IMG/VR virus record: IMGVR_UViG_3300017697_000015
Span: 53,154 to 73,153 of that record
Length of the DNA: 20,000 nt
DNA from: an uncultured virus (IMG/VR IMGVR_UViG_3300017697_000015)
Taxonomy: Duplodnaviria > Heunggongvirae > Uroviricota > Caudoviricetes
Direction: 5' to 3' (one strand)
The position numbers and the translations under genes were made by a program. This document shows positions 52-6,882 of this stretch, piece by piece (within the stretch, counting starts at the first letter, position 1; each line of letters starts with the position of its first letter). The notes beneath the pieces were generated by a model. That model was given only the letters and a program-made list of their open reading frames with translations, ran no database searches and was not told where the DNA came from.

Positions 52-80
52 ATTATAACATACTGAATTGCTATTTGCAA
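52..80 (-). promoter_or_regulatory. sigma70-type promoter TTGCAA-N17-TATAAT
   Basis: -35 at 80-75, -10 at 57-52, 17-nt spacer, TG-n extended -10; overlaps the primase stop codon. Confidence 0.7.
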
Positions 81-1084
81 TACTTATTCATTATTACTTG
101 TATCTTTAGTGGATTGTGTATCGCACTATCTAGTATAGTCTGTATAGTGAATAATTCACCATATTTTAGTGCTGCATCTGCTGCGTCTTTACATTCATCC
201 CATTCTGGGAATGATACGTACCATCCGCGATTGATTGCTGTATCTACTAATGACTTACTTGCAGAATCAGCATCGGGTAATAATATAATTTTTTTCTTCA
301 AACTATCGATTATATTTCCTTGTTCGATATTTATATTATTTGAACCAACTGCTATTCCATCAGTGAAGTATGCATCCAGTTGTCCTTCTGTTACGATCAC
401 AATCTTTTTATTAGATTGCTTATCTAATCCATATACGAAATCTAGTTTTGGTTGCTTAGTGAAATATTTTGGTATTTCTTTAGTAATTGTTCCTACCCAT
501 CGTGCAGTGTATCCTACTATCACACCTTTATAAAAGAATACATGAATAAATCTATTCTTCATTCGTGCTGGTGACATAGATGGTGAATAATAGAAACGAG
601 AATCCATAGGATCTAATCCTCTTGACACCATGTATTCCAATACTCTCTCAAGTTCAGGAGTTACCTCGGTGTACTCGGATATAGGCTTCGCACCTTGCGG
701 CAATTCTACTGGTTCCCAATTGATCTCTACCGCATCATCGATTGATACTTTCTTTAAAAGAATAGTCTCAATATCGCGATCTTCAAGTAATCTTAATTGT
801 AATCGTTGAATATCACTTGAATCTGCACCAAATGCTGTATATAATGCTTTCAGACGGTCGTCTATTTTATTGTCTAGCGTGGGCCAGCCTGCTGTGAAAT
901 TACAGTTGAAGCAATTGTATTGAAAGGTATCTTGCTCTGGGAAATAGAAACCACCACGACCTTTTGTGTCGTGAGAATGACCCCTAGTAGCACATACAGG
1001 GCAATTACCAGAAACCCATCCAGACGGATTTATCTTCCAGTTAGGTGGTATATGCGCTCTTGTAAAATCTATTATTAATCTCAT
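71..1084 (-). CDS. DNA primase (T4 gp61/DnaG-like; Zn-binding domain + TOPRIM)
   Basis: N-terminal CPVC...CFNC Zn ribbon; TOPRIM motifs VIVTEGQLDA, LLPDAD, KDAADA. Start placed at 1084 (MRLIIDF) because the ATG at 1093 overlaps the promoter -10. Confidence 0.9.
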   Translation of the reverse strand: MRLIIDFTRAHIPPNWKINPSGWVSGNCPVCATRGHSHDTKGRGGFYFPEQDTFQYNCFNCNFTAGWPTLDNKIDDRLKALYTAFGADSSDIQRLQLRLLEDRDIETILLKKVSIDDAVEINWEPVELPQGAKPISEYTEVTPELERVLEYMVSRGLDPMDSRFYYSPSMSPARMKNRFIHVFFYKGVIVGYTARWVGTITKEIPKYFTKQPKLDFVYGLDKQSNKKIVIVTEGQLDAYFTDGIAVGSNNINIEQGNIIDSLKKKIILLPDADSASKSLVDTAINRGWYVSFPEWDECKDAADAALKYGELFTIQTILDSAIHNPLKIQVIMNKYCK

Positions 1085-1091
1085 GTTATAC

Positions 1092-1120
1092 ATTCTACAC
1101 GATTAATGTGATTTTGTCAA
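1092..1120 (-). promoter_or_regulatory. sigma70-type promoter TTGACA-N17-TAGAAT for primase
   Basis: -35 at 1120-1115, -10 at 1097-1092, 17-nt spacer. Confidence 0.8.
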
Positions 1121-1127
1121 TAGAATG

Positions 1128-1949
1128 TTACACTCTTATTACGATTTTATCCACAGTACCACTAAATGTATTATCAATCTTCGCTCTCATATATGACAAG
1201 TTAGATTGTACTGAAAACGGCTCAATACCAGTGAAATTATTGAACTCGTGATAATCAGCGAATGGTGACAAATCTAAATCAAACCAATCACTTGGTCCAG
1301 GTGACTGTGCAGTTGTTCCCTGCATATAAAAATCACCTGTGTAGTCAGTGCAATATACGCCAAATGTAATCAACCCATTTGGTTTATTATAGTAAGAAGG
1401 TCCTACAATAATTGAACTATAGTCAAATATACCTTCTGATGTAAATTCGGTTACGATTTGAGAAGTTAACGGTATTGCATGTGCTTCATCTGATATCTCT
1501 ACTGTGAAATTAGGGCGCATATTCTGATCTACATACATAGGCAATACAAGTCCTAGTTCATTAGTATATGTTAATACTAAATCACATAGACCAGTATCTA
1601 TATTTGATAAGTGAGATGCACGTACTACTAATTTCACACTACCTAGATCATAATCGGTAATTGTACATGTTGTACTTAATATCGTACTATTAGATTCCCT
1701 GTATACTAATGATGCATTAATATTCATATTAAATAATGAAATTGGTTTGCGATCTTGATTCTTTATGAAGAAATGCAACTCATTGTCAAGTCCCTTAAAT
1801 AATTTAAGACGATTGAAATTAACGGGCGCATTGATCGTTGTACCACGTGTACTATTGTATTGCGATGAACCTGTGGCTGTGCCGTGATCTTTTAATATGT
1901 ATAGATCACCAGATTGATTTATATTGTAACTTGTGCTGTAATTGCTCAT
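1128..1949 (-). CDS. putative virion structural protein (BppU N-terminal-like beta-sandwich followed by a second beta-rich domain)
   Basis: 273-aa ORF; pattern LFKGLDNELHFFIKNQDRKPISL...DYDLGSVKLVV...DTGLCDLVLTY resembles baseplate-upper N-domains; late motif CATAAATA upstream. Confidence 0.55.
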   Translation of the reverse strand: MSNYSTSYNINQSGDLYILKDHGTATGSSQYNSTRGTTINAPVNFNRLKLFKGLDNELHFFIKNQDRKPISLFNMNINASLVYRESNSTILSTTCTITDYDLGSVKLVVRASHLSNIDTGLCDLVLTYTNELGLVLPMYVDQNMRPNFTVEISDEAHAIPLTSQIVTEFTSEGIFDYSSIIVGPSYYNKPNGLITFGVYCTDYTGDFYMQGTTAQSPGPSDWFDLDLSPFADYHEFNNFTGIEPFSVQSNLSYMRAKIDNTFSGTVDKIVIRV

Positions 1950-2019: not shown

Positions 2020-2391
2020 ATGCAAAAACAATATGAAGAATTACTCGACCAATATCCATTTCTGACAGTGCTATCTTACGCCGGCAACGAATATGTTGGT
2101 GTCATGCAGAACATTGACACTCAAATCGCAAGCATGTATATGTTTGAACGATTGGAATCAGTAGATGAAAAGCAATTATTTCTTATGCTAGGAGAAGAAT
2201 GGTGGTGGGAAACTAATAGACAGTTACCGATCAACATTGCCTTGATCAATAGGTGGCATTTTCAACACTGTATACAAAGTTTTAATGTAAAGCAAATGGA
2301 AATAATCGCTGGTCCCGAAGTTAGACTCAGCAATTCCATTACAAAAAGAATAAAACGTAGAAGTATTAATCTTATGAAAAAGAGTCTTTAA
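2020..2391 (+). CDS. hypothetical protein (only credible plus-strand gene)
   Basis: 123-aa ORF filling the gap between minus-strand genes, with own promoter motif; WWWETNRQLPINI motif, basic C-terminus. Confidence 0.8.
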   Translation: MQKQYEELLDQYPFLTVLSYAGNEYVGVMQNIDTQIASMYMFERLESVDEKQLFLMLGEEWWWETNRQLPINIALINRWHFQHCIQSFNVKQMEIIAGPEVRLSNSITKRIKRRSINLMKKSL

Positions 2392-2950
2392 CGATCTTGT
2401 TTAATTGCATAACCACTACCATTGCGTATGAGTGAGCGTGACTTTTCTTAAAGTAATAAGAATCATCTTCTGGCTTAACCCAAATGTCGTTCATCACAGT
2501 ATCCCAATCTTTGCCAATTAGGTGACTCTTTGCTGGTCGTATCATTGCCAATACTGCTGCCAATTGACCAACACTTTTAGGCTTCATTTGTTGAACAATT
2601 CCATAATGTGAATGTATATGGAAACATTTCTCAACAATTTCCCTATGCTCTAATAGATCCCACATGGGTTCCATTTCAAGTAATTCATCAAGTTCTGCTT
2701 TGTTATTGATATCATTATATACTGATACATTCAACAAATCCATTTTAAAGTAACCCATCTTTTCGGCATCTTTATGATCTATTGTCGCTAAACCATTATA
2801 TGGATTAGTAGGAATCTCATGAAAATATACACCTGTGTTGTGCTTTTTTTCAGTATGTTCTCGCTTTATCATTGCAGGCGTATTTTCAATTAGAGCAAGT
2901 AATTTATCTCTATTCGCAATATCTATGTCAATATCTGTATTAACTATCAT
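2372..2950 (-). CDS. miniature DNA polymerase III alpha (DnaE, family C)-like protein
   Basis: Colinear DnaE motifs in 192 aa: TDIDID (PDxDxD), KHNTGVY (HAAGVV), GYFKMDLLN (GLVKFDFLG), LAMIRPA (ALYRPG), YYFKKSHAHSYA (YGFNKSHSAAYA). Confidence 0.8.
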   Translation of the reverse strand: MIVNTDIDIDIANRDKLLALIENTPAMIKREHTEKKHNTGVYFHEIPTNPYNGLATIDHKDAEKMGYFKMDLLNVSVYNDINNKAELDELLEMEPMWDLLEHREIVEKCFHIHSHYGIVQQMKPKSVGQLAAVLAMIRPAKSHLIGKDWDTVMNDIWVKPEDDSYYFKKSHAHSYAMVVVMQLNKIVKDSFS

Positions 2951-2956
2951 ACTAAT

Positions 2957-3649
2957 TTATCCTATACTCGCTTGTTTCAAAATAGTTTCTACCCATTGTA
3001 AATCTTTAACTTCATTTTTACGCTTTAATCGTATCTGCCAATATTGAGGATCAATATAATCTACAATCATTTCAATCTGTTTATTATTCAACATATCCAA
3101 TAATCCCTGTGCATCATTACTTGCATATATAACCCAAGGACTGATTCTACCAGAACATATATGAAAAACTGCTAGACTAGGCGCTACTGTTTTGAAATAT
3201 GTATTCCAATCACTTTCTCTATCTTCTGCCCAATCTTGCATTGCTAGTATTGTTCGCTCGACTGCTCTATCAACACTCTCAACTTTCAATCGCTCTTTTA
3301 CCCACCCACTAAATCTCGCATCATGTGTCCAGTGATCTAGTTTTACTTGATTCTTTAGTAACCAAGTGGTGAATCCAATTACATCATCTATCTTAACCTC
3401 AATGCAATATTTGCCAAACTTTATGAACGCACCATAATACGAACTTTTTGCAAATTCGGTATAAGATTTGTCTTTCTTTGAATTTGTCCCAATACGATAA
3501 AATAACTGATATGCACGATATCCTAATTGAACATCTTTATCTGTCTCTTGCATATGTCGTTTTTTCTGTACACATAGATGTACGATAAGCGTGTTTTCAC
3601 GCTTAAAGTCTTTATTGCAGTATTCACATTTATACGATTTTTGTTGCAT
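2957..3649 (-). CDS. Zn-finger protein, possibly a gp59-like helicase loader
   Basis: N-terminal YKCEYCNKDFKRENTLIVHLC (C2H2/C2HC-like finger); remainder helical with pattern similarity by eye to T4 gp59. Confidence 0.6.
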   Translation of the reverse strand: MQQKSYKCEYCNKDFKRENTLIVHLCVQKKRHMQETDKDVQLGYRAYQLFYRIGTNSKKDKSYTEFAKSSYYGAFIKFGKYCIEVKIDDVIGFTTWLLKNQVKLDHWTHDARFSGWVKERLKVESVDRAVERTILAMQDWAEDRESDWNTYFKTVAPSLAVFHICSGRISPWVIYASNDAQGLLDMLNNKQIEMIVDYIDPQYWQIRLKRKNEVKDLQWVETILKQASIG

Positions 3650-5424: not shown

Positions 5425-6882
5425 TTACTTGTAATCTACTTTCTCTATTGAAAAAGGATAATTTGCTTCTTTATAAAATTTCTTACGTTCAGTCAAATGA
5501 CGCTTACTAAACTTTGCTGTACTCGTGAAATCATATATCTCTACAAAGTCCTTATCATCTGCTCTACGAACACCACGTCCAATTGATTGTATTACACGCA
5601 CAAAACTCTTACCAGGCTCAATCAATACCATGTTAAATATGCGTGGGATGTTTAATCCAACTGCTGCTACACCATATGTCGCAATAGTAATACTATTAGT
5701 CGCTTCATTAATTTCATCGTATGTGTCTTTACGATCTGTAGACTTCATTGCTCCCTTAACGAAAGTAGTATCACCGCCAATATGATCAACTAACATTTCG
5801 CCTGCTTTAATGCGATCAACCAATACCAGAGTATTACCAGATTGTGATATTGTCTTTATTAAATCACCCATGTAACTAATACGATGTGCATTCGTTGTCA
5901 AAAATGTCAATTCACTTTGATAATTAGTATAGTCAGTGATTTCTTTCATTTGTACAATATTAACATGACAATTACTTAGTACACCCATGTCTTGTAATTC
6001 TGATGCTGCTAAACGATTTACTACATTGCCCAAACTAACTTGCAATGTCATTTGTTCGTTTTCTGCTTTTGGTATTGTACCTGTCAATCCCCATCGTAGA
6101 GGTACATTAGCAAATTCCTTAGTAAGCATATCTTTTAGTACATCCGCCTTTGCTTGGTGAACTTCGTCTACTATGATACAGACTACATCCTCTGCAAAGT
6201 CTTGCAATCCCCAATCTTGCTCACCATTCTTGAATCGTTTACGAATTACGTTAAGACTCTGCCATGTACAAATTGTATGAGTTCGTCCAAATTCTTTTTT
6301 ATCACCAAAGTACACACCAACATCAAGTCCAAGATTAATATAATCTGCGCATGTTTGATTCACCAAATCTTTATTTGGGACAATAACAATAGAACGACCA
6401 TACTTCTCTGCTTTATAACTTAACGCTGCTGTAATCAATGTTTTACCAGCACCCGTTGCAATCTCTTGTAGACACTGAGGAGTTTCTACAAACTTGTTGA
6501 CAATGTCAATTTGATAATCACGTAGTGTTACAGGATGTCCTTCAAATCGATGCTTTGCGGGCCATACTTTATGTTGAAACGTAGATTCATCTACCAAATC
6601 AAACTCAAATTTATTATGAGTTCTAAGATCATCCAATTCAATCTGATAACCATCTTCGATGATAATAGGAATCGCTGTCTCTAATAGACTGACAAATGTA
6701 ATACCACCGATGGTAAAATATCGTTCACACCCATCCCATCTACCTAATTTATAGGAAGGAACATGTCGCGCATAAGGCAAGAAAAACTTAAACTTTGCCT
6801 CTAGTTTTTTTCTAGTGGTAAGTTCAAGTCCTTCTATCTTTGCATTGACTTCGTCTTTCAATATAATTGTTGCAGTTTTAAT
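5425..6882 (-). CDS. uvsW: UvsW-like SF2 DNA helicase
   Basis: Walker A IATGAGKT, DEVH, GLTGT, QSIGRGVR, N-terminal YKLGRWDG. Start extended from TTG 6861 to ATT 6882 on the basis of SD GGAGA at 6893-6889. Confidence 0.9.
   Translation of the reverse strand: MKTATIILKDEVNAKIEGLELTTRKKLEAKFKFFLPYARHVPSYKLGRWDGCERYFTIGGITFVSLLETAIPIIIEDGYQIELDDLRTHNKFEFDLVDESTFQHKVWPAKHRFEGHPVTLRDYQIDIVNKFVETPQCLQEIATGAGKTLITAALSYKAEKYGRSIVIVPNKDLVNQTCADYINLGLDVGVYFGDKKEFGRTHTICTWQSLNVIRKRFKNGEQDWGLQDFAEDVVCIIVDEVHQAKADVLKDMLTKEFANVPLRWGLTGTIPKAENEQMTLQVSLGNVVNRLAASELQDMGVLSNCHVNIVQMKEITDYTNYQSELTFLTTNAHRISYMGDLIKTISQSGNTLVLVDRIKAGEMLVDHIGGDTTFVKGAMKSTDRKDTYDEINEATNSITIATYGVAAVGLNIPRIFNMVLIEPGKSFVRVIQSIGRGVRRADDKDFVEIYDFTSTAKFSKRHLTERKKFYKEANYPFSIEKVDYK

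Follow-up and report, generated by a model that had tools for sequence, protein, structure and literature searches.

Split, minimal forms of the alpha subunit of DNA polymerase III (Pol III alpha) are already known from comparative genomics (Iyer et al. 2021). In its part on group 2.2 jumbo phages, that is, the Rak2/PA5oct/Atu_ph07-like jumbo phages, this paper (PMC7824862; Viruses 13:63) describes the split minimal Pol III alpha together with a family B replicase carried by the same phages, and it is proposed there that the minimal enzyme might work together with this replicase when one strand is synthesised or in repair. Its authors also speculate that the split minimal Pol III alpha could preserve a near-ancestral minimal family C core. 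When the full-text literature from 2021 on was searched, no experimental work on the split minimal Pol III alpha was found, and PMC7824862 was the only paper that matched. The paper on phage Sharanji, in the part that names the gene, merely lists 'DNA polymerase III DnaE', and DNA polymerase is unmentioned in the main text of the PA5oct omics paper. The GenBank label of the homologue in vB_Pa-PAC2 is 'DNA polymerase III alpha'.

The 192-aa open reading frame (ORF) reported here is alike in family, length and motifs to the split minimal Pol III alpha, in which PHROG 11778 represents the C-terminal half (C-half) and PHROG 11127 the N-terminal half (N-half), and it is no different in kind from its group 2.2 counterparts. 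The setting is also common to both, since the record belongs to a jumbo myophage with a family B polymerase, an SF2 helicase and a DnaG-type primase. We conclude with good confidence that the product of the ORF is the C-half of a minimal Pol III alpha made of two pieces, which would form a heterodimeric polymerase accessory to the family B replicase. To the earlier description we add a mapping of the split point (E. coli DnaE 393/399), a candidate fused form, and a model of the complex with controls.

The window, by which we mean the whole stretch of DNA analysed, is the final 20 kb of a 73,153-base IMG/VR virus fragment with an estimated completeness of 20%. The lineage is uncultured and apparently marine, and near-identical homologues bear Tara and JGI source labels; the copy in the window is at most 50% identical to that of any cultured phage. 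A gene for a family B DNA polymerase is found at the opposite end of the record (G000:C1:555-1757, PF00136, E 4.4e-33, in an 880-aa open frame); the sequence-only reading of this locus had suggested looking for a separate family A or B replicase. The features of the window are collected in Table 1.

Table 1 Features of the window and of the 192-aa ORF. Positions are those of the window unless residues are stated.
Feature	Position	Strand	Basis or remark
DnaG-type primase	71..1093	-	phrog_47 'DNA primase', E 5e-28
273-aa ORF between primase and C-half	1128-1949	-	phrog_14467 virion structural family, weak, E 1.2e-8
123-aa ORF, convergent with C-half	2020-2391	+	phrog_11637 (unrelated to DnaE), E 3.4e-31; 3' overlap 20 nt
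192-aa ORF, probable C-half of split minimal DNA Pol III alpha	2372..2950	-	Intact in ORF list; PHROG, conservation, PDB profile, AF2
Start codon ATG of 192-aa ORF	2950-2948	-	Read from sequence
Stop codon TAA of upstream gene	2957-2959	-	Between AGGA and ATG of 192-aa ORF
Shine-Dalgarno AGGA	2960..2963	-	9 nt before ATG of 192-aa ORF; read from sequence
DIDID	Residues 6-10 of 192-aa ORF		Translation
KHNTGVY	Residues 36-42 of 192-aa ORF		Translation
FKMDLL	Residues 68-73 of 192-aa ORF		Translation
AMIRPA	Residues 135-140 of 192-aa ORF		Translation
FKKSHAHSYA	Residues 167-176 of 192-aa ORF		Translation
230-aa conserved protein directly upstream of C-half	2957-3649	-	phrog_11058, E 4.8e-64
SF2 DNA helicase, upstream of C-half	5425..6861	-	ResIII E 1.1e-18, Helicase_C E 6.2e-10, phrog_16 'DNA helicase' E 1.2e-67; listed with TTG start, start putative
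Two perfect (12/12) sigma-70 consensus sites	8198-8170, 7912-7883	-	TTGACA, 17/18-nt spacer, TATAAT; both lie upstream of the 6962-7846 gene, within the gap
Very long ORF, 1499 aa	12118-16617	-	Several tail-fibre/collagen-like PHROG matches
Very long ORF, at least 995 aa	16901-19888	-	Several tail-fibre/collagen-like PHROG matches; may run past window end

On the same strand as the C-half, several conserved families without assigned function are found (phrog_11058, 11758, 11279 and 1250), and the N-terminus of the phrog_11058 protein (residues 6-26) resembles a C2H2 zinc finger, below the threshold. Some of this arrangement recurs in Phosso, a Sinorhizobium phage with a complete genome. There, a primase and DnaB likewise lie downstream of the C-half, an equivalent convergent arrangement with an overlap of 4 nt is seen at the 3' end of the C-half gene, and a 'virion structural protein' occupies the matching place of the replication module. 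Promoter-like sites were not enriched in the window (44 observed against 45.3 expected), and a tRNA search found none.

The claim of the sequence-only reading that an intact ORF is present with an AGGA Shine-Dalgarno sequence and a stop codon was borne out, with the addition that the gene is on the minus strand, which had been left unstated. The stop codon of the upstream gene falls between the Shine-Dalgarno sequence and the start codon, and the genes are therefore closely packed. All five of the DnaE-like motifs which that reading had named are present in the translation, and the DxD motif begins after 5 residues of the protein.

Several comparisons show that the 192-aa protein is a true homologue of the palm and fingers of DnaE. 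First, when a profile of 88 homologues was compared with PDB sequences, all nine distinct matches at E <= 1 were Pol III alpha, with a best E of 1.2e-5. In this alignment, profile positions 55-140 pair with E. coli 539-641, by which K69/D71 are placed on K553/D555, and positions 152-179 pair with E. coli 740-768, by which FKKSH is placed on FNKSH (756-760). Second, the AlphaFold2 (AF2) model of the protein, made with an alignment, had a mean pLDDT of 96.4 with every residue confidently modelled, and its Foldseek ranks 1-15 were all DnaE or PolC entries, seven of them at E <= 0.001. Third, in VIA-align, 13 family C polymerase entries led with Z 6.3-10.0, and the next entry, an unrelated one, reached Z 3.6. 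The match to Taq DnaE (3e0d) had Z 10.0 and rmsd 4.0 over 190 aligned residues (chain 458-838), and that to E. coli DnaE (2hnh) had Z 9.0 and rmsd 3.8 over 183 aligned residues (chain 399-781). The homology claimed from the sequence was thus recovered by all three methods, including the structural comparison with the E. coli and Taq enzymes that had been proposed for checking it. With these two bacterial enzymes (2HNH and 3E0D), the ORF has in common the palm DxD and KxD, (F/I)RP, and F(N/K)KSH..YA. The family C core is also shared with PolC of Firmicutes, matched in the Geobacillus entries 3F2B/3F2C with Z 9.6 over 189 residues at 13% identity; PolC is far longer, at over 1400 aa, and has an exonuclease inserted.

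Compared with bacterial DnaE, about half of the region E. coli 399-781 is deleted in the ORF. The 190 residues of the protein represent a region which takes about 385 residues in E. coli DnaE (397/399-781), and in the profile alignment about 47 positions stand for E. coli 403-539 and about 11 for 641-740. Relative to E. coli, about 89 residues are therefore absent from the DxD motif to residue 539 and, within the fingers, about 87 from 641 to 740; we take these two gaps to represent the thumb and some of the fingers. Since 183-190 residues align across the whole of E. coli 397/399-781, the earlier description of the protein as compressed by internal deletions, and not simply truncated, is correct. 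The search against DNA_pol3_alpha gave a divided outcome: Pfam was silent, with no match in the ORF at E <= 0.1 for either DNA_pol3_alpha or PHP, whereas the PDB profile matched solely Pol III alpha. The thumb deletion probably breaks the Pfam model, so that this silence is no argument against homology.

The whole ORF is covered by phrog_11778 'DNA polymerase' (E 7.5e-65, residues 4-190 against profile 6-195 of 197), and residues 53-141 also match positions 579-679 of phrog_405, a DnaE-type profile of 1190 positions (E 1e-7). Using tblastn, homologues were found in 96 phage records, every one of a jumbo phage, with identities of 38-50%, and 95 of them span at least 80% of the 192-aa query. These phages include Rak2, K64-1, 121Q/PBECO4-like, PA5oct-like, Atu_ph07, XacN1, SCTP-2 and Phosso. 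The family is also very abundant in metagenomes, with at least 7932 cluster representatives (90% identity) at E <= 0.001 out of 8000 scored candidates in a search restricted to proteins of 105-336 aa; among the 120 metagenomic homologues listed, the length was 172-206 aa. One metagenomic homologue, P0004, is 93% identical and lies on a 318,573-bp contig. When representatives clustered at 50% identity were searched exhaustively, 409 matches to the C-half family were obtained.

The family is strongly constrained. When the query was aligned with 87 diverse homologues (88 sequences, 31-93% identity), D6, D8, K69, D71 and P139 were invariant, and conservation was 90% or higher at D10, A26, H37, G40, W97, P124, A131, R138, K141, K168, H171 and A176. 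The dN/dS, calculated from near relatives, was 0.059 (L011) and 0.063 (L013 and L017), and the ORF is under purifying selection; dS is saturated in more distant pairs. The three aspartates on which the sequence-only reading depended are thus among the invariant residues. These data also bear on whether the ORF could be a decaying remnant or a mis-called fragment of a frameshifted or truncated full-length dnaE, as the shortness of the protein and its being missed by Pfam DNA_pol3_alpha might suggest. With thousands of homologues of like length (about 190 aa among the matches listed), a dN/dS of 0.06, a confidently modelled chain, and abutting ORFs on both sides that carry no DnaE-like sequence, we give this explanation a practically negligible chance. 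Homologues that are fragments of a split or frameshifted full-length dnaE had been named beforehand as a finding that would speak against a genuine miniature protein; what was found is a piece of a split DnaE, but of a minimal one and not of a full-length one.

The protein consists of the Mg2+-binding DxD and KxD strands and reduced fingers. In the AF2 model, the first residues correspond to E. coli 397-399, which leaves out the GS-motif (NTP-binding) part of the palm, and the chain ends at the equivalent of about residue 781, with no clamp-binding motif, OB fold or tau-binding domain. There is no PHP domain, as the ORF starts 5 residues before the DxD and has no PHP match in Pfam, and neither a thumb nor full fingers can be accommodated in 190 residues for E. 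coli 399-781. The earlier list of missing parts (PHP, most of the thumb and fingers, clamp-binding and OB domains) therefore stands. A complete palm with both GS motif and three aspartates, as in full-length family C polymerases, is not found in this one chain. Compared with bacterial DnaE, the GS-motif part of the palm in the split minimal Pol III alpha sits on another polypeptide.

This second polypeptide was located in relatives of the phage. In Phosso, a second DnaE piece was detected at 97,516-97,740 (phrog_405 362-436, E 1.9e-10), and the C-half lies at 321,328-321,903, 224 kb away. The ORF of the Phosso N-half has 177 aa, ends with ...GVGRGSSVASY...ELDFDEFLN-stop, and matches PF07733 at positions 21-95 (E 5.3e-12, which passes the curated cut-off) as well as phrog_11127 (E 2.2e-50); GenBank names both Phosso genes 'DnaE-like DNA polymerase III alpha'. 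In a marine relative (G004, 205 kb, 56% complete), whose C-half is 65% identical to that of the window, a 168-aa N-half lies about 117 kb from the C-half. The halves are 43 kb apart in PA5oct, and the distance across relatives ranges from 43 to 224 kb. The N-half family gave 1698 matches, with PF07733 in all 120 listed and a length of 159-182 aa among these. The AF2 model of the N-half had a pLDDT of 86.5, and its residues 67-168 align to E. coli 277-393 (Z 10.0-11.0, rmsd 2.6, 98 aligned). Since the N-half corresponds to E. coli 277-393 and the C-half to 399-781, the two halves abut, and the split point falls after the GS-motif helix and before the DxD strand. We considered an intein or trans-splicing origin of the split and rejected it: the N-halves end with ...EFL(N/K)-stop and the C-half begins with MIVNTDID, which leaves no space for intein halves.

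The first 65 residues or so of the N-half had no structural match above Z 2.4 and no recognised DnaE counterpart. In G004 (L089:1498-2004, minus strand), residues 1-65 form a small alpha/beta unit with strands at 9-11, 28-31 and 54-57 and helices at 13-21 and 35-46, in which D15, L21, I37 and N41 are invariant and W43 and C44 are at least 90% conserved. This domain may take the place of a module that DnaE has and the split enzyme lacks, for example the thumb or PHP.

Several lines of evidence suggest that the two halves belong together. In cultured phages, the genus counts of records with the C-half and the N-half match: 34 and 34 for Escherichia, 11 and 11 for Pseudomonas, 11 and 10 for Klebsiella, 8 and 8 for both Salmonella and Erwinia, and 4 and 4 for both Xanthomonas and Yersinia. 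The difference in Klebsiella may arise because at least two Klebsiella records are partial, and additional N-half matches in Bacillus and Clostridium phages are presumably full-length DnaE. A suggestive link is also provided by P0175, a metagenomic protein of 375 aa in which N- and C-half are arranged head to tail with a 9-residue linker. Its residues 80-180 are 46% identical to N-half 70-168 (E 4e-24), and its residues 190-374 are 39% identical to residues 5-183 of the window's protein (E 1e-42). P0175 is a singleton, encoded on a single contig of 2,415 bp, and could be an unsplit relative or else an assembly artefact. No longer or fused forms were found by word-based search, which is a weak type of search. 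A joint MAFFT alignment of P0175 with both half-families was discarded, as most N-halves were put on C-half columns and a few were spread over the full length.

The complex was modelled using the N-half of G004 and the C-half of the window, that is, halves from two phages. The model scored 0.89 and the best control 0.09, a mark that 116 of 157 solved complexes attain, as do 2 of 215 mismatched pairs. At least 98% of the contacts agreed between runs, and the partner pLDDT was at least 90. In the predicted interface, N-half residues 129-142, which include G134-S140 (GVGRGSS), are set against C-half residues 5-13 with the DIDID motif. In the same model, N-half residues 3-11 and 24-30 also contact the C-half. 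Since the halves of a split gene can pass such a test through their resemblance to solved single-chain DnaE, the model indicates that the halves are compatible, or that they resemble such structures, which is short of binding.

These results change the interpretation that the sequence-only reading had preferred, namely a stand-alone minimal nucleotidyltransferase. In that interpretation, the 192-aa protein alone would bind nucleotide and catalyse, for example in terminal or protein nucleotidylation. It is true that the three aspartates and the K/R/H residues of the fingers are in a single chain and are invariant or nearly so, that this chain is predicted to fold confidently by itself (pLDDT 96.4), and that no N-half is found in the window's record or in the records of its eight closest relatives. 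However, transferases of the Pol-beta fold require the GS-motif helix, which is missing from the ORF and is encoded by a distant gene in relatives. The GS piece forms a separate and equally conserved family, co-occurs with the C-half in cultured phages and is fused to it in P0175, and the complex model sets GVGRGSS against the DxD strand. The records that lack the N-half are 11-40% complete. We regard a stand-alone enzyme as very improbable. The other option that had been offered, the catalytic core of a multi-subunit polymerase, came nearest to the truth, with the correction that the GS part of the active site is on a second protein in relatives.

For the phage of the window itself, the partner is assumed from relatives. 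The N-half was not found in its own record, where PF07733 gave no match anywhere in the 73 kb at E <= 10. It was also not found in eight other records with a C-half 92-100% identical (G001-G003 and G006-G010, 11-40% complete), in five further marine relatives, or in G005, these records all being fragments. Among the 15 marine relatives, the record of G004 is the one that has it, and all 15 are fragments with a completeness of 11-60%. Since the halves lie 43 to 224 kb apart where both are seen, the missing N-half is to be expected in such fragments and proves nothing either way.

In the two-piece polymerase that we propose, the C-half would bring the three metal-binding aspartates, D6 and D8 on the DxD strand and D71 on the KxD strand, and shortened fingers with R138-P139 and F-K-K-S-H...Y-A. 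The separate N-half, with a length of about 170 aa and a gene that lies tens to hundreds of kb from that of the C-half, would supply the GS-motif helix that grips the triphosphate of the incoming nucleotide. In the heterodimer, the GS motif is predicted to pack on the DxD strand and would thereby restore a Pol-beta-like nucleotidyltransferase active site. Such an enzyme would synthesise DNA on a template distributively, with low processivity and without proofreading, and would assist the family B replicase, for example by extending primers, by making one of the strands, or in repair. The binding of the halves, the catalysis and the biological role are what we infer from the comparisons above, and DNA polymerase activity in an enzyme without a thumb or a clamp-binding motif is uncertain.

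The heterodimer might also be active in another way, as a template-independent or RNA-directed nucleotidyltransferase used in tailing, DNA modification or signalling by nucleotides in phage-host conflict, and not as a polymerase of replication or repair. Such an activity would suit the absence of the thumb, clamp-binding, OB and proofreading modules, the presence of a family B replicase in the phage, and the first 65 or so residues of the N-half, which have no recognised DnaE counterpart (Z <= 2.4). On the other hand, the DnaE-type fingers motifs (R138-P139 of IRP and FKKSH...YA) are kept under strong constraint, and the gene shares its replication module with those of a primase and a helicase in both the window and Phosso. 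Considering these points, we judge a function of the heterodimer outside replication and repair to be improbable.

The same primase and helicase neighbours fit a primer-extension role of the accessory polymerase, which is agreement and not proof. A possible analogue of such a role is found in Bacillus subtilis, where DnaE, a full-length and clamp-binding family C polymerase, acts next to the primase as the primer-extending partner of a different main replicase, PolC. By this analogy, we tentatively propose, as a more specific and rather unlikely version of the accessory polymerase, that the mini Pol III alpha of about 360 residues is active, independent of the clamp and free of proofreading, and that it extends primers beside the primase and then hands over to PolB.

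In conclusion, we assign the 192-aa ORF with good confidence to the C-half of a split minimal Pol III alpha. If the two-piece enzyme is active, it would represent the smallest core among family C polymerases and reveal which DnaE parts catalysis requires. An active enzyme would also mean that the replisome of these phages mixes bacterial-type and archaeo-eukaryotic-type polymerases. If the proposed hand-over from the mini Pol III alpha to PolB is true, a DnaE-to-PolC-style division of labour would have been reinvented in a T4-like replisome.
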